DNA of 64,000 nt, from NCBI RefSeq assembly GCF_003334785.1, contig NZ_QOWV01000002.1; one strand, written 5' to 3'. This document shows positions 26,887 to 51,870 of this stretch, in pieces. The first letter of the stretch is position 1. Each line of letters opens with the position of its first letter. Made by a program: the position numbers and the translations under genes. This DNA is from Escherichia coli. Its GTDB lineage: Bacteria > Pseudomonadota > Gammaproteobacteria > Enterobacterales > Enterobacteriaceae. Under the pieces are notes generated by a model. That model made no database searches. It worked only from the letters and a program-made list of their open reading frames with translations, and was not told where the DNA came from.

Positions 26887-27333
26887 AGTAAGTACAAAAC
26901 CTATTCGTTGTATGACAAATGTCACAATTCGATCATGGATAAATCGGGGCAAAAATGCAATGTTGCAGCACTATTTATCTCATATTATTTGAGGGTAATA
27001 ACCTCACATTATCCCTGAATTAAAAGTGGTAATAATAAAACATTATTTAAGAAATATCGCATGTGGAGGCGCAATATTAAATATTGTCAACCTAAAGAAA
27101 CTCCTAAAAACCATATTGAATGACACTTAATATAATTCTTAAAAATAGCCAATTACCGAATTGTTATCTTGCCTGCTATTCCGTTAGCTGTAACACTTCC
27201 TCCTGCATTATTGGAAAGCCAATATTCAATTACCATAATGTCACCTTATATTCGGAAGTTAATTTCCGTAATAACCCTTTCTCATCAACGACTGCATGCT
27301 GAGAGGGTGTGAAAAATTAAACTAAATCAGTGT

Positions 27334-27372
27334 ATTGGTAGCTAAAAAGCCAGGGGCGGTAGCGTGTCTGGA
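27334..27372 (+). promoter_or_regulatory. JUMPstart element with ops (GGCGGTAGCGTG at 27355-27366), RfaH-dependent antitermination site
   Basis: agccaggggcggtagcgtg motif about 190 bp upstream of wza; the same motif recurs at 51845-51864. Confidence 0.8.
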
Positions 27373-40392: not shown

Positions 40393-41829
40393 ATGGCGCA
40401 GTCGAAACTCTATCCAGTTGTGATGGCAGGTGGCTCCGGTAGCCGCTTATGGCCGCTTTCCCGCGTACTTTACCCCAAGCAGTTTTTATGCCTGAAAGGC
40501 GATCTCACCATGCTGCAAACCACCATCTGCCGCCTGAAAGGCGTAGAGTGCGAAAGCCCGGTGGTGATTTGCAATGAGCAGCACCGCTTTATTGTCGCGG
40601 AACAGCTGCGCCAACTGAACAAACTCACCGAGAACATTATTCTCGAACCGGCAGGGCGTAACACTGCACCAGCCATTGCGCTGGCGGCGCTGGCGGCAAC
40701 ACGTCATAGTCCGGAGAGCGACCCGTTAATGCTGGTGCTGGCGGCGGATCATGTGATTGCCGATGAAGACGCGTTCCGTGCCGCCGTGCGTAATGCCATG
40801 CCGTATGCCGAAGCGGGCAAGCTGGTGACCTTTGGCATTGTGCCGGATCTACCAGAAACCGGTTATGGCTATATTCTTCGCGGTGAAGTATCTGCGGGCG
40901 AGCAGGATACGGTGGCCTTTGAAGTGGCGCAGTTTGTCGAAAAACCGAATCTGGAAACCGCCCAGGCCTATGTGGCAAGCGGCGAATATTACTGGAACAG
41001 CGGCATGTTCCTGTTCCGTGCCGGACGCTATCTCGAAGAACTGAAAAAATATCGTCCGGATATTCTCGATGCCTGCGAAAAAGCGATGAGCGCCGTCGAT
41101 CCGGATCTCGATTTTATTCGCGTGGATGAAGAAGCGTTTCTCGCCTGCCCGGAAGAGTCGGTGGATTACGCGGTCATGGAACGTACGGCAGATGCCGTTG
41201 TGGTGCCGATGGATGCGGGCTGGAGCGATGTCGGTTCCTGGTCCTCTTTATGGGAGATCAGCGCCCACACCGCGGAAGGCAACGTTTGCCACGGCGATGT
41301 GATTAATCACAAAACTGAAAACAGCTATGTGTACGCCGAATCTGGCCTGGTCACCACCGTCGGGGTGAAAGATCTGGTGGTGGTGCAGACCAAAGATGCG
41401 GTGCTGATTGCCGACCGTAACGCGGTGCAGGATGTGAAAAAAGTGGTCGAGCAGATCAAAGCCGATGGTCGCCATGAGCATCGGGTGCATCGCGAAGTCT
41501 ATCGCCCGTGGGGCAAATATGACTCTATCGACGCGGGCGACCGCTACCAGGTGAAACGCATCACCGTGAAACCGGGCGAAGGCTTGTCGGTACAGATGCA
41601 CCATCACCGCGCGGAACACTGGGTGGTGGTCGCGGGAACGGCAAAAGTCACTATCGACGGTGATATCAAACTGCTTGGTGAAAACGAGTCCATTTATATT
41701 CCGCTGGGGGCGACGCATTGCCTGGAAAACCCGGGGAAAATTCCGCTCGATTTAATTGAAGTGCGCTCCGGCTCTTATCTCGAAGAGGATGATGTGGTGC
41801 GCTTCGCGGATCGCTACGGACGGGTGTAA
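40393..41829 (+). CDS. cpsB: Mannose-1-phosphate guanylyltransferase (colanic acid copy)
   Basis: 478 aa; [13 protein letters not shown] motif; C-terminal cupin. Confidence 0.95.
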
Positions 41830-41830
41830 A

Positions 41831-41935
<105 letters not shown>

Positions 41936-42021
41936 AATGCGAAACCGAGATGTAAATAACGACAAAAACAAAATTGGCCGTTTCGGTCAGGGCCAACTAT
42001 TGCCTGAAAAAGGGTAACGAC

Positions 42022-43392
42022 ATGAAAAAATTAACCTGCTTTAAAGCCTATGATATTCGCGGGAAATTAGGCGAAGAACTGAATGAAGATATCGCCTGGC
42101 GCATTGGTCGCGCCTATGGCGAATTTCTCAAACCGAAAACCATTGTGTTAGGCGGTGATGTCCGTCTCACCAGCGAAACCTTAAAACTGGCGCTGGCAAA
42201 AGGTTTACAGGATGCGGGCGTTGACGTGTTGGATATTGGTATGTCCGGCACCGAAGAGATCTATTTCGCCACGTTCCATCTCGGCGTGGATGGCGGCATT
42301 GAAGTTACCGCCAGCCATAATCCGATGGATTATAACGGCATGAAACTGGTGCGCGAAGGGGCTCGCCCAATCAGCGGTGATACCGGACTGCGCGACGTCC
42401 AGCGTCTGGCAGAAGCCAACGACTTTCCTCCCGTCGATGAAACCAAACGCGGTCGCTATCAGCAAATCAACCTGCGTGACGCTTACGTTGATCACCTGTT
42501 CGGTTATATCAATGTCAAAAACCTCACGCCGCTCAAGCTGGTGATCAACTCCGGGAACGGCGCAGCGGGTCCGGTGGTGGACGCTATCGAAGCCCGCTTT
42601 AAAGCCCTCGGCGCACCTGTGGAATTGATCAAAGTGCACAACACGCCGGACGGCAATTTCCCCAACGGTATTCCTAACCCGCTGCTGCCGGAATGTCGCG
42701 ACGACACCCGCAATGCGGTCATCAAACACGGCGCGGATATGGGCATTGCCTTTGATGGCGATTTTGACCGCTGTTTTCTGTTTGACGAAAAAGGGCAGTT
42801 TATCGAGGGCTACTACATTGTCGGCCTGCTGGCAGAAGCGTTCCTCGAAAAAAATCCCGGCGCGAAGATCATCCACGATCCACGTCTCTCCTGGAACACC
42901 GTTGATGTGGTGACTGCCGCAGGTGGCACGCCGGTAATGTCGAAAACCGGACACGCCTTTATTAAAGAACGTATGCGCAAGGAGGACGCCATCTACGGTG
43001 GCGAAATGAGCGCCCACCATTACTTCCGTGATTTCGCTTACTGCGACAGCGGCATGATCCCGTGGCTGCTGGTCGCCGAACTGGTGTGCCTGAAAGGAAA
43101 AACGCTGGGCGAACTGGTGCGCGACCGGATGGCTGCGTTTCCGGCAAGCGGTGAGATCAACAGCAAACTGGCGCAACCCGTTGAGGCGATTAATCGCGTC
43201 GAACAGCATTTTAGCCGTGAGGCGCTGGCGGTGGATCGTACCGATGGCATCAGCATGACCTTTGCCGACTGGCGCTTTAACCTGCGCACCTCCAACACCG
43301 AACCGGTGGTGCGCCTGAATGTGGAATCGCGCGGTGATGTGCCGCTGATGGAAGCGCGAACGCGAACTCTGCTGACGTTGCTGAACGAGTAA
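42022..43392 (+). CDS. cpsG: Phosphomannomutase (colanic acid copy)
   Basis: ORF track start 41974 trimmed to the ATG at 42022 ([15 protein letters not shown]); 456 aa; TASHNP active site. Confidence 0.9.
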
Positions 43393-43446
43393 TGTCGGAT
43401 CTTCCCTTACCCCATTGCGGGTAAGGGGCTATTAACAGGAACAACG

Positions 43447-44841
43447 ATGACAAATCTAAAAAAGCGCGAGCGAGCGAAAACCAATGCATCGTTAATCTCT
43501 ATGGTGCAACGCTTTTCAGATATCACCATCATGTTTGCCGGACTATGGCTGGTTTGCGAAGTGAGCGGCCTGTCATTCCTCTACATGCACCTGTTGGTGG
43601 CACTGATTACGCTGGTGGTGTTCCAGATGTTGGGCGGCATCACCGATTTTTATCGCTCATGGCGCGGTGTTCGGGCAGCGACAGAATTTGCTCTGTTGCT
43701 ACAAAACTGGACGTTAAGCGTGATTTTCAGCGCCGGACTGGTGGCGTTCAACAATGATTTCGACACGCAACTGAAAATCTGGCTGGCGTGGTATGGGCTG
43801 ACCAGCATCGGACTGGTGGTTTGCCGTTCATGTATTCGCATTGGGGCGGGCTGGCTGCGTAATCATGGCTATAACAAGCGCATGGTCGCGGTGGCGGGGG
43901 ATTTAGCCGCCGGGCAAATGCTGATGGAGAGCTTCCGTAACCAGCCGTGGTTAGGGTTTGAAGTGGTGGGCGTTTACCACGACCCGAAACCGGGCGGCGT
44001 TTCTAACGACTGGGCGGGTAACCTGCAACAGCTGGTCGAGGATGCTAAAGCAGGCAAGATTCATAATGTCTATATCGCGATGCAAATGTGCGACGGCGCG
44101 CGAGTGAAAAAACTGGTCCATCAATTGGCGGACACCACCTGTTCGGTGCTGCTGATCCCCGACGTCTTTACCTTCAATATTCTTCATTCCCGTATCGAAG
44201 AGATGAACGGCGTTCCGGTGGTGCCGCTGTATGACACGCCGCTTTCCGGGGTTAACCGCCTGATAAAACGTGCGGAAGACATTGTGCTGGCGACGCTTAT
44301 TCTGCTGCTGATCTCCCCGGTGCTGTGCTGTATTGCGCTGGCGGTGAAACTCAGTTCACCAGGGCCGGTTATTTTCCGCCAGACTCGCTATGGCATGGAT
44401 GGCAAGCCGATCAAAGTGTGGAAGTTTCGTTCCATGAAAGTGATGGAGAACGACAAAGTGGTGACCCAGGCGACGCAGAACGATCCGCGCGTCACCAAAG
44501 TGGGGAACTTTCTGCGCCGCACCTCGCTGGATGAATTGCCGCAGTTTATCAATGTGCTGACCGGCGGGATGTCGATTGTGGGGCCACGTCCGCACGCAGT
44601 AGCGCATAACGAACAGTATCGACAGCTCATTGAAGGCTACATGCTGCGCCATAAGGTGAAACCGGGCATTACCGGCTGGGCGCAGATTAACGGCTGGCGC
44701 GGCGAAACCGACACGCTGGAGAAAATGGAAAAACGCGTCGAGTTCGACCTTGAGTACATCCGCGAATGGAGCGTCTGGTTCGATATCAAAATCGTTTTCC
44801 TGACGGTATTCAAAGGCTTCGTTAACAAAGCGGCATATTGA
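43447..44841 (+). CDS. wcaJ: UDP-glucose:undecaprenyl-phosphate glucose-1-phosphate transferase
   Basis: 464 aa; polyprenyl-phosphate sugar transferase C-terminus. Confidence 0.9.
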   Translation: MTNLKKRERAKTNASLISMVQRFSDITIMFAGLWLVCEVSGLSFLYMHLLVALITLVVFQMLGGITDFYRSWRGVRAATEFALLLQNWTLSVIFSAGLVAFNNDFDTQLKIWLAWYGLTSIGLVVCRSCIRIGAGWLRNHGYNKRMVAVAGDLAAGQMLMESFRNQPWLGFEVVGVYHDPKPGGVSNDWAGNLQQLVEDAKAGKIHNVYIAMQMCDGARVKKLVHQLADTTCSVLLIPDVFTFNILHSRIEEMNGVPVVPLYDTPLSGVNRLIKRAEDIVLATLILLLISPVLCCIALAVKLSSPGPVIFRQTRYGMDGKPIKVWKFRSMKVMENDKVVTQATQNDPRVTKVGNFLRRTSLDELPQFINVLTGGMSIVGPRPHAVAHNEQYRQLIEGYMLRHKVKPGITGWAQINGWRGETDTLEKMEKRVEFDLEYIREWSVWFDIKIVFLTVFKGFVNKAAY

Positions 44842-44842
44842 T

Positions 44843-46321
44843 ATGAGCTTACGTGAAAAAACCATCAGCGGCGCGAAGTGGTCGGCGATTGCCACGGTGA
44901 TCATCATCGGTCTCGGGCTGGTGCAGATGACCGTGCTGGCGCGGATCATCGACAACCACCAGTTCGGTTTGCTGACTGTGTCGCTGGTGATTATCGCGCT
45001 GGCAGATACGCTTTCTGACTTCGGTATCGCTAACTCGATTATTCAGCGAAAAGAAATCAGCCACCTTGAACTCACCACGTTGTACTGGCTGAACGTCGGG
45101 CTGGGGCTTGTGGTGTGCGTGGCGGTGTTTTTGTTGAGTGATCTCATCGGCGACGTGCTGAACAACCCGGACCTGGCACCGTTGATTAAAACATTGTCGC
45201 TGGCGTTTGTGGTGATCCCCCACGGGCAACAGTTCCGCGCGTTGATGCAAAAAGAGCTGGAGTTCAACAAAATCGGCATGATCGAAACCAGCGCGGTGCT
45301 GGCGGGCTTCACTTTTACGGTGGTTAGCGCCCATTTCTGGCCGCTGGCGATGACCGCGATCCTCGGTTATCTGGTCAATAGTGCGGTAAGAACGCTGCTG
45401 TTTGGCTACTTTGGTCGAAAAATTTATCGCCCCGGTCTGCATTTCTCGCTGGCGTCGGTGGCACCAAACTTACGCTTTGGTGCCTGGCTGACGGCGGACA
45501 GCATCATCAACTATCTCAATACCAACCTTTCAACGCTGGTGCTGGCGCGTATTCTCGGCGCGGGCGTGGCAGGGGGATACAACCTGGCGTACAACGTGGC
45601 CGTTGTGCCGCCGATGAAGCTGAACCCGATCATCACCCGCGTGTTGTTTCCGGCGTTTGCCAAAATTCAGGACGACACCGAAAAGCTGCGCGTCAACTTC
45701 TACAAGCTGCTGTCGGTGGTGGGGATTATCAACTTTCCGGCGCTGCTCGGGCTGATGGTGGTGTCGAATAATTTTGTACCGCTGGTCTTTGGTGAGAAGT
45801 GGAACAGCATTATTCCGGTGCTGCAATTGCTGTGTGTGGTGGGTCTGCTGCGCTCCGTAGGTAACCCGATTGGCTCGCTGCTGATGGCGAAAGCGCGGGT
45901 CGATATCAGCTTTAAATTCAACGTATTCAAAACATTTCTGTTTATTCCGGCGATTGTTATTGGTGGGCAGATGGCGGGCGCAATCGGTGTCACGCTTGGC
46001 TTCCTGCTGGTGCAGATTATCAACACCATTCTGAGTTACTTCGTGATGATTAAACCGGTTCTTGGTTCCAGTTATCGCCAGTACATCCTGAGTTTGTGGC
46101 TGCCGTTTTATCTCTCGCTGCCGACGCTGGTGGTCAGTTATGCGCTGGGCATTGTGCTGAAAGGGCAACTGGCACTGGGGATGCTGCTGGCGGTGCAAAT
46201 AGCCGCGGGCGTGCTGGCGTTTGTGGTGATGATTGTGCTGTCGCGCCATCCGCTGGTGGTGGAAGTGAAGCGTCAGTTTTGTCGCAGCGAAAAAATGAAA
46301 ATGCTTTTACGGGCGGGGTGA
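44843..46321 (+). CDS. wzxC: Colanic acid flippase
   Basis: 492 aa, multi-TM. Confidence 0.9.
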   Translation: MSLREKTISGAKWSAIATVIIIGLGLVQMTVLARIIDNHQFGLLTVSLVIIALADTLSDFGIANSIIQRKEISHLELTTLYWLNVGLGLVVCVAVFLLSDLIGDVLNNPDLAPLIKTLSLAFVVIPHGQQFRALMQKELEFNKIGMIETSAVLAGFTFTVVSAHFWPLAMTAILGYLVNSAVRTLLFGYFGRKIYRPGLHFSLASVAPNLRFGAWLTADSIINYLNTNLSTLVLARILGAGVAGGYNLAYNVAVVPPMKLNPIITRVLFPAFAKIQDDTEKLRVNFYKLLSVVGIINFPALLGLMVVSNNFVPLVFGEKWNSIIPVLQLLCVVGLLRSVGNPIGSLLMAKARVDISFKFNVFKTFLFIPAIVIGGQMAGAIGVTLGFLLVQIINTILSYFVMIKPVLGSSYRQYILSLWLPFYLSLPTLVVSYALGIVLKGQLALGMLLAVQIAAGVLAFVVMIVLSRHPLVVEVKRQFCRSEKMKMLLRAG

Positions 46322-46334
46322 GTTGCTGTTTTCG

Positions 46335-46550
46335 GTTCCGACAACGGTTGCCGGATGCGGCGTAAAACGCCTTATCCGTCCTACGGTTCTGTGCTCGGGA
46401 CCTGTAGGCCTGATAAGACGCGTCAGCGTCGCATCAGGCACTGAATGCCGGATGCGGCGTGAACGCCTTATCCGGCCTACGGTTCTGTGCTCGGGTCTTG
46501 TAGGCCTGATAAGACGCGTCAGCGTCGCATCAGGCAAAAAGCGGCAACGA
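46335..46550. repeat. Tandem REP/BIME cluster (two ~100-bp near-identical units)
   Basis: Unit gccggatgcggcgt..cgccttatccg..cctacggttctgtgctcggg..cttgtaggcctgataagacgcgtcagcgtcgcatcaggca appears twice. Confidence 0.85.
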
Positions 46551-46596
46551 ACAAAACAAACGCAGCCTCACCTGGCATCAAATTTATGAGGAAAAA

Positions 46597-47877
46597 ATGA
46601 AATTACTTATTCTGGGCAACCACACTTGCGGCAATCGTGGCGACAGCGCCATCCTGCGCGGCTTACTTGATGCCATCAACATTCTCAATCCACACGCCGA
46701 AGTGGATGTGATGAGCCGCTATCCGGTCAGTTCTTCCTGGCTGCTCAACCGCCCGGTAATGGGCGATCCGCTGTTCCTGCAAATGAAACAACACAATAGC
46801 GCGGCGGGCGTTGTCGGGCGCGTTAAAAAAGTCCTCCGTCGCCGCTACCAGCATCAGGTATTGCTCTCACGCGTCACCGACACTGGCAAGCTGCGCAATA
46901 TCGCCATCGCCCAGGGATTCACCGACTTCGTGCGCCTGCTGTCAGGTTACGACGCCATTATTCAGGTCGGCGGATCGTTTTTTGTCGATCTCTATGGCGT
47001 GCCGCAGTTTGAACATGCGCTTTGCTCATTTATGGCGAAAAAGCCGCTGTTTATGATTGGTCACAGTGTTGGTCCCTTCCAGGATGAGCAATTTAACCAA
47101 CTGGCGAACTATGTCTTTGGTCATTGCGACGCGCTGATCATGCGCGAATCGGTCAGCCTTGATCTGATGAAACGCAGCAATATCACTACCGCAAAAGTGG
47201 AACATGGCGTCGATACCGCGTGGCTGGTCGATCACCACACCGAAGATTTCACCGCCAGCTATGCCGTCCAACACTGGCTGGACGTTGCCGCACAACAGAA
47301 AACGGTGGCAATTACCCTGCGCGAACTGGCACCGTTCGACAAACGTCTCGGCACCACTCAACATGCGTATGAAAAAGCCTTTGCCGGGGTGGTCAATCGC
47401 ATTCTCGACGAAGGGTATCAGGTGATTGCGCTCTCCACCTGTACGGGCATCGACAGCTATAACAAAGACGACCGCATGGTGGCGCTCAATCTTCGCCAGC
47501 ACATCAGCGATCCTGCCCGTTACCATGTGGTGATGGATGAACTCAACGATCTGGAAATGGGCAAAATTCTGGGTGCCTGTAAACTCACCGTTGGTACGCG
47601 TCTGCACTCAGCCATTATCTCAATGAATTTTGCCACTCCGGCAATTGCCATCAACTACGAACATAAATCCGCCGGGATTATGCAACAACTGGGGCTGCCA
47701 GAGATGGCGATTGATATCCGTCATTTATTAGATGGCAGCCTGCAAGCGATGGTTGCGGATACCTTAGGCCAGCTTCCGGTGCTGAACGCACGACTTAGCG
47801 AAGCCGTCAGTCGTGAGCGTCAGATAGGAATGCAGATGGTGCAATCTGTGCTTGAGCGCATCGGGGAGGTGAAATGA
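46597..47877 (+). CDS. wcaK: Colanic acid pyruvyl transferase
   Basis: 426 aa. Confidence 0.9.
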   Translation: MKLLILGNHTCGNRGDSAILRGLLDAINILNPHAEVDVMSRYPVSSSWLLNRPVMGDPLFLQMKQHNSAAGVVGRVKKVLRRRYQHQVLLSRVTDTGKLRNIAIAQGFTDFVRLLSGYDAIIQVGGSFFVDLYGVPQFEHALCSFMAKKPLFMIGHSVGPFQDEQFNQLANYVFGHCDALIMRESVSLDLMKRSNITTAKVEHGVDTAWLVDHHTEDFTASYAVQHWLDVAAQQKTVAITLRELAPFDKRLGTTQHAYEKAFAGVVNRILDEGYQVIALSTCTGIDSYNKDDRMVALNLRQHISDPARYHVVMDELNDLEMGKILGACKLTVGTRLHSAIISMNFATPAIAINYEHKSAGIMQQLGLPEMAIDIRHLLDGSLQAMVADTLGQLPVLNARLSEAVSRERQIGMQMVQSVLERIGEVK

Positions 47878-49094
47878 AGGTCGGCTTCTTTTTACTGAAA
47901 TTCCCGCTGTCTTCGGAAACCTTCGTCCTCAACCAAATCACTGCGTTTATTGATATGGGCTTTGAGGTGGAGATTGTCGCGCTGCAAAAAGGCGATACAG
48001 AGAACACCCACGCGGCATGGACGAAATACAACCTTGCCGCCAGAACCCGCTGGTTACAGGACGAACCTACGGGCAAAGTGGCGAAACTGCGCCACCGCGC
48101 CAGCCAGACCTTACGCGGCATTCATCGTAAAAATACCTGGCAGGCGCTCAACCTCAAACGCTATGGCGCAGAGTCGCGGAACCTGATTTTGTCTGCCATT
48201 TGCGGTCAGGTCGCAACACCATTTCATGCCGATGTCTTTATCGCTCATTTTGGTCCAGCGGGGGTAACAGCAGCAAAACTCCGCGAACTGGGTGTCATTC
48301 GCGGCAAAATTGCTACTATCTTCCACGGCATTGATATCTCAAGTCGGGAAGTGCTCAACCACTACACTCCCGAATATCAGCAACTGTTCCGCCGTGGCGA
48401 CCTGATGCTACCGATAAGCGATCTGTGGGCCGGAAGGCTGCAAAAAATGGGCTGCCCGAGGGAAAAAATCGCCGTATCGCGCATGGGCGTGGACATGACG
48501 CGCTTTAGCCCGCGTCCGGTGAAAGCGCCTGCAACGCCGCTGGAAATCATTTCCGTCGCACGCTTAACCGAGAAAAAAGGCCTGCATGTGGCGATTGAAG
48601 CCTGTCGGCAGTTGAAAGAGCAGGGCGTGGCATTTCGCTATCGCATCCTCGGCATTGGCCCGTGGGAACGACGCCTGCGCACCCTCATCGAACAATATCA
48701 ACTGGAAGATGTGGTGGAGATGCCGGGCTTTAAACCGAGCCATGAAGTGAAAGCGATGCTCGACGACGCGGATGTCTTCCTGTTGCCATCGGTAACGGGT
48801 GCGGATGGCGATATGGAAGGCATTCCGGTAGCGCTGATGGAAGCGATGGCGGTCGGCATTCCGGTGGTTTCTACTCTGCATAGCGGAATACCGGAATTGG
48901 TGGAGGCCGATAAATCCGGCTGGCTGGTGCCTGAGAACGATGCTCGCGCACTGGCGCAACGACTGGCTGCGTTTAGCCAACTGGACACCGACGAACTGGC
49001 TCCGGTTGTCAAACGTGCGCGCGAAAAAGTCGAACACGATTTTAACCAGCAGGTGATTAATCGAGAACTCGCCAGCTTGCTGCAGGCTTTATAG
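47874..49094 (+). CDS. wcaL: Colanic acid glycosyltransferase (GT4)
   Basis: 406 aa. Confidence 0.9.
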
Positions 49095-49104
49095 AGGAGA
49101 ACGC

Positions 49105-50499
49105 ATGCCATTTAAAAAACTCTCCCGACGCACCTTCCTGGCGGCAAGCTCGGCGCTTGCCTTCCTCCATACCCCTTTCGCTCGCGCACTTCCCGCCCGA
49201 CAAAGCGTTAACATTAACGACTACAACCCACACGACTGGATCGCCTCATTTAAACAAGCCTTCAGCGAAGGGCAAACGGTCGTCGTGCCTGCCGGATTGG
49301 TTTGTGACAATATCAACACCGGCATCTTCATTCCTGCAGGTAAAACGTTACACATCTTGGGAAGCCTGCGCGGCAACGGCAGAGGGCGATTTATCTTACA
49401 GGACGGCAGCCAGGTGACAGGGGAGGAGGGCGGCAGTATGCATAACATCACCCTGGATGTGCGTGGCTCTGACTGCACCATCAAAGGGCTGGCGATGAGC
49501 GGCTTTGGCCCGGTAACGCAGATTTATATCGGCGGCAAAAACAAACGGGTCATGCGCAACCTGACCATCGATAATCTCACCGTTAACCACGCTAATTACG
49601 CTATTTTGCGCCAGGGATTTCATAACCAGATAATCGGTGCCAACATCACCAATTGTAAGTTCAGTGACTTACAAGGCGACGCCATTGAATGGAACGTGGC
49701 AATTAACGACAGTGATATTTTGATATCTGACCATGTCATCGAGCGCATCAACTGTACTAACGGCAAAATCAACTGGGGCATTGGCATAGGTCTTGCGGGA
49801 AGTACCTACGATAACAACTACCCGGAAGACCAGGCAGTGAAAAACTTTGTCGTGGCGAATATCACGGGATCGGATTGTCGGCAGTTGATCCATGTTGAAA
49901 ATGGCAAACATTTTGTTATTAGTAATATCAAAGCCCGCAATATCACGCCGGATTTCAGTAAGAAAGCGGGCATTGATAACGCCACGGTCGCTATTTACGG
50001 TTGTGACAATTTCGTGATTGATAATATTGAAATGATTAATAGCGCCGGGATGTTAATCGGCTATGGGGTAATTAAAGGCAAATATCTCTCGATACCGCAA
50101 AATTTCCGAGTGAATAATATTCAACTGGATAATACCCACCTTGCTTATAAATTGCGCGGTATCCAAATCTCCGCCGGGAATGCCGTCTCCTTTGTGTCGC
50201 TAACTAATATTGAGATGAAGCGTGCCTCGCTGGAGTTACACAACAAGCCGCAACATCTTTTTATGCGTAATATCAATGTGATGCAGGAATCCTCTGTTGG
50301 ACCCGCATTGATCATGAACTTCGACATGCGCAAAGACGTTCGAGGCGTCTTTATGGCGAAAGAAGAAACACTGCTGTCTCTTGCAAATGTTCATGCGGTG
50401 AATGAAAGAGGGCAAAGCTCCGTCGATATCGACAGGATTAATCACCATATTGTTAATGTGGAAAAGATTAACTTTAGATTGCCGGAACGGAGGGAGTAG
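49105..50499 (+). CDS. wcaM: Colanic acid biosynthesis protein WcaM
   Basis: 464 aa; Tat-like signal ([15 protein letters not shown]). Confidence 0.9.
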
Positions 50500-50673
50500 A
50501 TTTGCGACCATTCCTGGAAAAATGGAGCCATACTTAGGAACAATGCTACTGCAATCCACAACGAAGCGGCGTAACATCACAAGTAATTCAGTAATCAATT
50601 CAGGGTAATTGATGCTGGCGAAAAAAATCGAACAAGCTATAATTCAGCAACCATTTTACAGGTGGATGAAATA

Positions 50674-51567
50674 ATGACGAATTTAAAAGCAGTTATTCCT
50701 GTAGCGGGTCTTGGGATGCATATGTTGCCTGCCACTAAGGCGATTCCCAAAGAGATGCTACCGATCGTCGACAAGCCAATGATTCAGTACATTGTTGACG
50801 AGATTGTGGCTGCAGGGATCAAAGAAATCCTCCTGGTAACTCATGCGTCCAAGAACGCGGTCGAAAACCACTTCGACACCTCTTATGAATTAGAATCTCT
50901 TCTTGAACTGCGCGTGAAGCGTCAACTACTGGCGGAAGTTCAGTCCATCTGCCCGCCGGGCGTGACCATTATGAACGTACGTCAGGGCGAACCTTTAGGT
51001 TTAGGTCACTCCATTTTGTGTGCACGACCCGCCATTGGTGACAACCCATTTGTCGTGGTGCTGCCAGACGTTGTGATCGACGACGCCAGTGCCGACCCGC
51101 TGCGCTACAACCTTGCAGCCATGATTGCGCGCTTCAACGAAACGGGCCGCAGCCAGGTGCTGGCAAAACGTATGCCGGGTGACCTCTCTGAATACTCCGT
51201 CATTCAGACCAAAGAACCACTGGATCGTGAAGGTAAAGTCAGCCGCATTGTTGAATTTATCGAAAAACCGGATCAGCCGCAGACGCTGGATTCAGACATC
51301 ATGGCCGTTGGTCGCTATGTGCTTTCTGCAGATATTTGGCCGGAACTTGAACGCACTCAGCCTGGTGCATGGGGGCGTATTCAGCTGACTGATGCCATCG
51401 CTGAACTGGCGAAAAAACAGTCTGTTGATGCCATGCTGATGACAGGTGACAGCTACGACTGCGGTAAAAAAATGGGTTATATGCAGGCATTTGTGAAGTA
51501 TGGACTACGCAACCTGAAAGAAGGGGCGAAGTTCCGTAAAGGTATTGAGAAGCTGTTAAGCGAATAA
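50674..51567 (+). CDS. galF: UTP-glucose-1-phosphate uridylyltransferase-like regulatory subunit GalF
   Basis: ORF track start 50662 trimmed to the ATG at 50674 ([14 protein letters not shown]); 297 aa. Confidence 0.9.
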
Positions 51568-51831
51568 TGAAAATCTGACCGAATGTAACGGTTGATAAGA
51601 AAATTATAACGGCAGTGAAGATTCGTGGCGAAAGTAATTTGCTGCGAATATTCCTGCCGTTGTTTTATATAAACAATCAGAATAACAACGAGTTAGCAAT
51701 AGGATTTTAGTCAAAGATTTCCAGGATTTTCCTTGTTTCCAGAGCGGATTGGTAAGACAATTAGCGTTTGAATTTTTCGGGTTTAGCGCGAGTGGGTAAC
51801 GCTCGTCACATCGTAGACATGCATGCAGTGC

Positions 51832-51870
51832 TCTGGTAGCTGTAAAGCCAGGGGCGGTAGCGTGCTGAAA
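51832..51870 (+). promoter_or_regulatory. JUMPstart element with ops (GGCGGTAGCGTG at 51853-51864) upstream of the O-antigen operon
   Basis: aagccaggggcggtagcgtg about 60 bp upstream of wzx. Confidence 0.8.

Follow-up and report, generated by a model that had tools for sequence, protein, structure and literature searches.

The spacer between wzxC and wcaK in the colanic-acid (wca) operon of this Escherichia coli genome contains, as judged by its sequence, an ordinary BIME-2 of the Y/Z2 class, the same element as that in E. coli K-12. Taken together, the evidence is best explained by a dispensable K-12-type BIME-2 with putative roles as an mRNA barrier, an attenuator and a gyrase site, a reading to which we assign a probability of about 85%. 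Both the element and its copy-number variation are already known, for the BIME-2 class in general and for the wzxC-wcaK locus in particular, and the tandem duplication seen here is the normal, defining architecture of BIME-2 rather than an unusual event in this genome. Positions given below are those of the window, that is, the whole stretch of 64,000 nucleotides that was analysed.

Structure and Class of the Array

The array lies within a 275-bp spacer (46322-46596) that includes four REP hairpins. As the first-pass annotation had proposed, it separates two genes of a single plus-strand operon: the flanking ORFs are WzxC and WcaK by profile match, and the profile search places WcaJ upstream and WcaL downstream of this pair. 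In the ORF list wcaJ and wzxC are 1 nt apart, and wcaK and wcaL overlap by 4 nt. The features of the spacer and its borders are as follows:

44843-46321, plus strand: wzxC, colanic-acid repeat-unit flippase (NCBIfam NF007773, 834 bits, full length; ORF list; RefSeq annotation)
46319-46321, plus strand: stop codon of wzxC, 28 nt before the first REP stem at 46350
46339-46346, plus strand: left 8-nt flanking direct repeat, CGACAACG (from the sequence)
46350-46384, plus strand: REP 1, a Y REP ending in CTAC, with stem CCGTCC instead of CCGGCC and an A-rich loop (REP325 Y-motif scan)
46385-46403, plus strand: tail-to-tail linker 1, 19 nt, GGTTCTGTGCTCGGGACCT, in the S-linker position
46404-46439, plus strand: REP 2, a Z2 REP inverted relative to REP 1 and starting with GTAG (exact consensus match; comparison with REP325 Z2)
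46440-46446, plus strand: head-to-head linker, 7 nt, ACTGAAT, short and 's'-like
46447-46480, plus strand: REP 3, a canonical Y REP (sequence, motif scan)
46481-46499, plus strand: tail-to-tail linker 2, 19 nt, GGTTCTGTGCTCGGGTCTT
46500-46535, plus strand: REP 4, a Z2 REP identical to REP 2 (consensus match, motif scan)
46542-46549, plus strand: right 8-nt flanking direct repeat, CGGCAACG (from the sequence)
46588-46592, plus strand: Shine-Dalgarno sequence of wcaK, GAGGA, 52 nt past the array (from the sequence; unpaired in the predicted MFE fold)
46597-47877, plus strand: wcaK, colanic-acid pyruvyl transferase (TIGR04006, 926 bits)
46323-46589, plus strand: spurious ORF of 88 aa with a TTG start, translated REPs
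46307-46537, minus strand: spurious ORF of 76 aa with a TTG start, translated REPs

Tandem Repeats Finder resolved 46349-46536 as a single tandem array with a period of 96, 1.9 copies, 94% matches, 1% indels and a score of 341, and a repeat search found a 75-nt direct repeat (46366-46440 and 46462-46536) with 96% identity at a spacing of 96 nt, as well as internal palindromes. Two near-identical units of paired REPs in tandem, as first described, are thus confirmed. The unit had been put at about 100 bp; it is indeed tandem, with a period of 96 or 97 nt instead of that length. The interval first assigned to the duplication, 46335-46550, does contain the array but is too wide, the array proper extending from 46350 to 46535 and the remainder being flanking sequence. 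Each unit is made up of a Y REP, a 19-nt linker and an inverted Z2 REP, and 7 nt separate the two units, so that in the sense of the operon the order is Y, 19 nt, inverted Z2, 7 nt, Y, 19 nt, inverted Z2.

BIME-2, in the Gilson/Bachellier nomenclature as given in PMC3333891, combines y with z2 REPs; a short S linker separates REP and iREP, s, l or r linkers flank them, and the tandem copies vary in number among strains. Its linkers vary in both length and sequence (PMC3333891). The motif scan read the array as Y(iREP), Z2(REP), Y(iREP), Z2(REP), an alternation of inverted Y and Z2 elements, and outside the loops each Y or Z2 copy has the reverse-complement sequence of the corresponding motif in K-12 REP325. 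The four REPs are imperfect palindromes of 34-36 nt whose stems contain internal mismatches, with the feet CTAC at 46381-46384 and 46477-46480 and GTAG at 46404-46407 and 46500-46503, as is typical of REP/PU sequences. They are also wholly extragenic, lying within the wzxC-wcaK spacer, and a query with the array region matched a median of at least 34 places per E. coli genome, a high copy number such as REPs have; the same query gave contiguous matches of 188-190 nt, with 85-88% identity, at unrelated E. coli loci. A REP consensus pattern matched four times in the 64-kb window, against 0.00 matches expected by chance, and two of these matches are the Z2 copies of the array. By position and length, the 19-nt tail-to-tail and 7-nt head-to-head linkers would suit the S and s/l/r linkers of BIME-2. 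The alignment of the array to an Rfam Y-Z2 model is consistent with its Y/Z2 composition, and there are two tandem units here and 0-6 across E. coli. The array is assigned to BIME-2 because this composition, the inverted alternation and the variable number of tandem units fit the published definition.

BIME-1 (RIP) was considered and rejected as an identity. It has Z1 rather than Z2 and carries a long L linker with an IHF site, and according to PMC3333891 it occurs as single copies; the wca array has Z2, no long L linker and tandem units, and its spacer has no match to the IHF consensus WATCAANNNNTTR, the only two matches in the window being at 14794 and 61226.

Other elements of these kinds occur elsewhere in the window. 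A single Z2 REP lies on the minus strand at 41896-41931 in the cpsB-cpsG spacer, directly followed by an Rfam algC RNA motif (41968-42017, plus strand, 78.2 bits) upstream of cpsG/manB, and a further Z2-type REP with one mismatch to the consensus lies at 18153-18188 on the minus strand. Two tandem Sib RNA genes, which are Sib/Ibs type I toxin-antitoxin loci, are found on the minus strand at 11037-11179 and 11366-11514 (Rfam RF00113, 142 and 149.5 bits).

Relation to K-12 and to Earlier Descriptions of the Locus

The spacer of K-12 MG1655 has the same length of 275 bp and is identical at 274 of the 275 positions, the one difference being at 46475. With only one base different, K-12 shares the duplication, which is therefore not peculiar to this genome. 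The CCGTCC stem variant is found in both Y copies in K-12 and only in the first Y in this genome. A 901-nt query around the array matched strain AST198 at 100% and a K-12 derivative at 99.2% identity, and RefSeq annotates wzxC and wcaK at every locus that it matched. In the RefSeq record of MG1655, the region 2112000-2124000 has only CDS rows and no repeat features.

REPs at this locus were described by Iguchi et al. in 2011, who reported two or four of them at wcaK-wzxC as well as REPs at cpsG-cpsB and wcaA-wzc (PMC3158064). For O157 and other E. coli the paper also noted indels that contain REPs, and a shift in sequence similarity at the spacer of wcaK-wzxC (PMC3158064).

Over 41750-51865 of the window the similarity to K-12 varies in a mosaic fashion. 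Per 250 bp, cpsG-wzxC has about 4-8 differences, the stretch 46250-47000, made up of the array and the beginning of wcaK, has only 0-2, and wcaK-wcaM-galF has 8-19. This mosaic pattern therefore points to a recombination junction near the array, at about 47000, which echoes the similarity break at the wcaK-wzxC spacer in PMC3158064.

Variation in Unit Number among E. coli Genomes

A REP-free query, whose matched span gives the length of the array, was compared with 5,426 complete E. coli genomes and matched 4,669 of them. Units were counted in 59 genomes, which form a ranked spread sample and not a random one, so the following proportions are rough:

0 units: 10 of 59 genomes
0.5 unit: 2 of 59
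1 unit: 7 of 59
2 units: 20 of 59
3 units: 3 of 59
4 units: 6 of 59
5 units: 3 of 59
6 units: 4 of 59
non-REP spacer: 4 of 59

The alleles referred to in the text are:

L004: 72-bp spacer, no REP
L003 (NZ_CP074904.1): 145-bp spacer, Y and a truncated Z2, 0.5 unit
L002: 179-bp spacer, 1 unit
the window: 275-bp spacer, 2 units
L008: 371-bp spacer, 3 units
L006 and L007: 564- and 565-bp spacers, 5 units

Within clones the unit number seems to be constant: one unit was found in every sampled O157:H7 genome and two in K-12 derivatives. Strain IHE3034 is an example with 6 units. Multi-unit alleles are mosaics of unit variants, in which the Y loop is either GTAAAAC or GTGAAC and the S linker takes one of three forms, a pattern that fits unequal exchange between units. 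In the half-unit allele L003, found also in the O26 strain RM10386, the first Y REP is kept and, owing to an internal deletion, the S linker is followed at once by the last 9 nt of Z2 (...GTGCTCG/CATCAGGCA, the slash marking the junction), apparently a microhomology deletion. The array is bordered on both sides by an 8-nt direct repeat, CG(A/G)CAACG, of which the REP-free allele L004 keeps exactly one copy, TTCCGGCAACGAAC; the repeat may be either a footprint resembling a target duplication or a microhomology used for precise deletion.

The range of 0-6 units provides a natural allelic series for testing, inside an RfaH-antiterminated operon, the dual role as attenuator and stabiliser that has lately been proposed for BIME-2 arrays, and the unit number could be used as a lineage marker beside the recombination-prone O-antigen region.

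About 4 of the 59 sampled E. coli have a different spacer of 161 bp without any REP, as in L005 (NZ_CM129914.1, spacer at 622-782). It carries a CCCTCACCCTAACCCTCTCCCC...GGGGGCGAGGGG palindrome, which we take to be boxC-like, together with a different ribosome-binding region for wcaK. It resembles the inserts of Enterobacter and Lelliottia, which suggests replacement by recombination. Among the 5,426 complete genomes, 717 gave no wcaK match in a sensitive blastn search and 757 lack the wzxC/wcaK junction; in these genomes the colanic-acid cluster has presumably been replaced or lost, e.g., by group 1 capsule loci.

The Junction in Other Enterobacteriaceae

With a degenerate pattern for the start of wcaK and one genome per species, 119 loci were found, 113 of which have a measurable wzxC-wcaK spacer. 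In 73 of these 113 species the spacer is 10-39 bp long and contains no repeat, for which reason the short spacer is regarded as the ancestral state. In about 30% of the approximately 113 Enterobacteriaceae species it has been expanded to at least 60 bp by palindromes of either the REP type or the CCCTCTCCC/GGGAGAGGG type. REP-type inserts are present in the E. coli representative (one unit), in E. whittamii and in Salmonella enterica subsp. arizonae (one REP), and inserts with two REPs each are present in several Citrobacter and in one further Enterobacteriaceae genome. The CCCTCTCCC/GGGAGAGGG-type palindromes, which are unrelated to REPs, occupy the same junction in Enterobacter, Lelliottia, Pluralibacter, Buttiauxella and Pseudenterobacter. 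The insert of E. whittamii (L105) is a single Z2, and its right-hand junction is that of E. coli. Because this junction is common to both, the insertion would predate E. coli, and the empty alleles would then be secondary deletions.

Comparison of these sequences thus shows repeated, independent colonisation of the wzxC-wcaK junction. Most simply, this can be put down to permissiveness, since few junctions of the operon are free of overlap and this is one of them. One could go further and regard it as a recurrently colonised landing pad at which a structured insert has been selected, the 0-6 units acting as a heritable dial on the dosage of wcaK-wcaL-wcaM. If this were true, the unit number would tune pyruvylation and the completion of the colanic-acid repeat unit relative to the upstream genes; we regard it as speculative and improbable.

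Possible Roles of the Array in the wca Operon

In the predicted folds, REP 1 to REP 4 form RNA hairpins of -15.6, -21.9, -21.3 and -21.9 kcal/mol, and the RNA of the whole spacer reaches -136 kcal/mol (z = -9.7); alternatively, the inverted neighbours Z2-1 and Y-2 can form one long pairing with each other. Following the model of the intra-operon REP325, the most likely role of the array is a dual one as stabiliser and attenuator. The REP hairpins on the wca mRNA would stand in the way of 3'-5' exonucleases, thereby protecting the wza...wzxC message. The array would also attenuate read-through into wcaK-wcaL-wcaM partially and, at least in part, through Rho, and the attenuation would scale with the number of units. 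This number in turn may shift when units recombine with each other, by slippage or unequally, or through strand exchange mediated by TnpA_REP. On DNA the array is probably a gyrase-binding site, like other BIME-2.

These roles are taken from other REP loci, and it seems reasonable to transfer that of mRNA stabiliser or partial terminator by analogy. REP325, whose composition of Y and Z2 units has been described and which is the source of naRNA1-6 (PMC4550694), lies between yjdM and yjdN; on its deletion the downstream yjdN rises about 8- to 10-fold and the upstream yjdM falls about 3-fold, with partial dependence on Rho (preprint 10.64898/2026.03.23.713779). Genome-wide, tandem gene pairs with a REP between them have a higher ratio of upstream to downstream expression, the effects of REPs show a large context-dependent variance, and half-lives are not uniformly affected (preprint 10.64898/2026.03.23.713779). 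Neither wcaK nor wzxC nor the word 'colanic' is mentioned in this preprint (10.64898/2026.03.23.713779).

The array is dispensable, as REP-free alleles are common. With 10 of the 59 genomes of the spread sample REP-free and a spacer of 10-39 bp in 73 of 113 species, any function must be non-essential and any effect modulatory. In addition, the operon begins with wza, which is preceded by a JUMPstart element (27328-27366, plus strand, 60 bits); a link between JUMPStart and RfaH is stated in PMC9976346, and RfaH has been found by ChIP at wza-wcaM (PMC9765446). Attenuation at the array may thus be weak, because the wca operon is RfaH-modified and RfaH-modified polymerase resists Rho. A second JUMPstart (51826-51864, plus strand, 57 bits) follows galF at the head of the O-antigen cluster.

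Two further routes to an effect on translation may be mentioned. Liang, Rudd and Deutscher in 2015 reportedly found that translational down-regulation needs a REP no further than about 15 nt from the stop codon of the preceding gene; from the wzxC stop codon to the first REP stem the distance is 28 nt, so that this mechanism would not apply. Sequestration of the wcaK ribosome-binding site by the array was rejected, the Shine-Dalgarno sequence at 46588-46592 being unpaired in the predicted fold.

Alternative Readings

That the array does nothing to wca expression deserves serious thought, even if we find it rather unlikely. It would then be a neutral passenger, a selfish, slippage-prone repeat dispersed by RAYT (TnpA_REP), the unit number of which simply drifts. 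The occurrence of 0-6 units, of a partial deletion (L003) and of complete absence (L004) beside intact flanking genes agrees with this, as do the many Enterobacteriaceae, a majority, without a repeat at the junction and the report that REPs do not uniformly affect half-lives (preprint 10.64898/2026.03.23.713779). However, four mRNA hairpins of -16 to -22 kcal/mol are of the kind linked to the blocking of exonucleases, and REP325, of the same class, has effects of about 10-fold, both of which argue for a role on the mRNA. A role on the DNA should also be considered. BIME-2 elements hold an excess of gyrase cleavage sites, with y REPs favoured over z2, and the gyrase signal at BIME-2 rises when transcription is blocked (PMC6379681). 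Whether gyrase binding is the main role of the array is another matter: it would have to be a strong gyrase (or cruciform/HU) site that acts independently of transcription to relieve supercoiling near the 3' part of the wca operon of about 24 kb. The preference for y REPs and the stronger signal under blocked transcription speak for such a site, but only a subset of BIME-2 elements is cleaved by gyrase (PMC6379681), and wcaK, wzxC and 'colanic' are absent from the Topo-seq supplement text of that paper that was searched. Moreover, 0-unit alleles are common, and neither REP325 nor REP-REP pairs had an effect on the nucleoid or in Hi-C (preprint 10.64898/2026.03.23.713779), so that as the main role it appears distinctly unlikely.

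The remaining candidates would make the array a discrete genetic element, and each has one conspicuous point in its favour. An Rfam search gives a match to naRNA4 (RF02564) at 46407-46477 on the minus strand, with 79.7 bits against a gathering score of 59.5, which might be taken for a gene, transcribed from 46477 to 46407, of a nucleoid-associated sRNA resembling naRNA4. The match spans the central head-to-head Z2/Y pair and is antisense to the operon, whereas the operon-sense strand scores 55.4 bits, below the threshold. naRNA4 is one Y-l-Z2 unit of REP325 (PMC4550694), so the model is essentially Y-linker-Z2, and a match is to be expected because a well-preserved head-to-head Y/Z2 pair is present; its antisense direction and a 6-nt alignment gap follow from the array being opposite to REP325, with a linker of 7 instead of 13 nt. 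A scan of 46000-46900 found no promoter-like site on either strand, and the same laboratories have reported no compaction of the nucleoid by either REP325 or naRNA4 (preprint 10.64898/2026.03.23.713779). We thus reject the gene call, an antisense match without a promoter-like site in the scanned region to what is a generic Y-Z2 pair, and hold the existence of such a gene to be very improbable. An intrinsic (Rho-independent) terminator ending the wza-wzxC transcript might be suspected from GC-rich hairpins directly after a gene. The scan of 46000-46900 gave no terminator-like site on either strand, though; none of the hairpins has a T-run after it, and on the plus strand the last Z2 is followed by AAAAAG, so that this reading is scarcely credible and is effectively refuted by the sequence. 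Finally, the two ORFs that the first-pass annotation had marked as spurious do exist, and their open frames of 88 and 76 aa are all that would favour a small protein encoded by 46323-46589 (plus) or 46307-46537 (minus). Both start with TTG and are translated REPs; the open stretch lengthens with the number of units, the alternation of 96- and 97-nt units breaks the frame in 5-unit alleles, and the 0-unit allele has no comparable ORF. In the eight RefSeq genomes fetched for the locus, only wzxC and wcaK are annotated and no gene is placed in the spacer. The chance of a small protein is practically negligible.

The main value of this analysis lies in annotation hygiene: the two repeat ORFs should not be called as genes, and the Rfam match to naRNA4 should be taken to indicate a Y/Z2 REP pair, not an sRNA gene.

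Comparison with Known Systems

With BIME-2 in general the array has in common the alternation of inverted Y and Z2 REPs, the GTAG and CTAC feet, short linkers, the tandem arrangement, the extragenic location and the variation among strains, and there is no difference of substance, its first Y being slightly degenerate. With BIME-1 (RIP-RIB), which consists of Y and Z1 with an L linker containing an IHF site, it shares paired inverted REPs. The REPs described by Iguchi et al. at wcaK-wzxC represent the same element at the same locus; they were said to be 'inserted in the same orientation' and were given no BIME-2 class, whereas the four REPs here alternate in orientation, and the range of alleles is extended here to 0-6 units from two or four REPs (PMC3158064).

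Other intra-operon REPs are known from outside the wca operon. The intercistronic REPs of malE-malF and hisJ-hisQ were reportedly tested experimentally by Newbury et al. in 1987 and by Stern et al. in 1988, both cited in PMC3158064; they are likewise intra-operon hairpins, proposed to stabilise the upstream mRNA against 3'-5' decay. REP325 of K-12 has 6 units with a period of 100, a 13-nt 'l' linker head-to-head and 17 nt tail-to-tail, and reads [GTAG]Y-l-Z2[CTAC] relative to transcription, while the wca array has 2 units with a period of 96 or 97, 7 nt head-to-head and 19 nt tail-to-tail, in the opposite orientation. Because the orientation is opposite and the head-to-head linker is 7 nt long instead of 13 nt, the sizes of the REP325 effects are not simply transferable. 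REP325 is also a BIME-2 of Y and Z2 located between two co-oriented genes of one operon, yjdM and yjdN, and it is the closest and best experimental model for a dual role of the wca array as attenuator and stabiliser.
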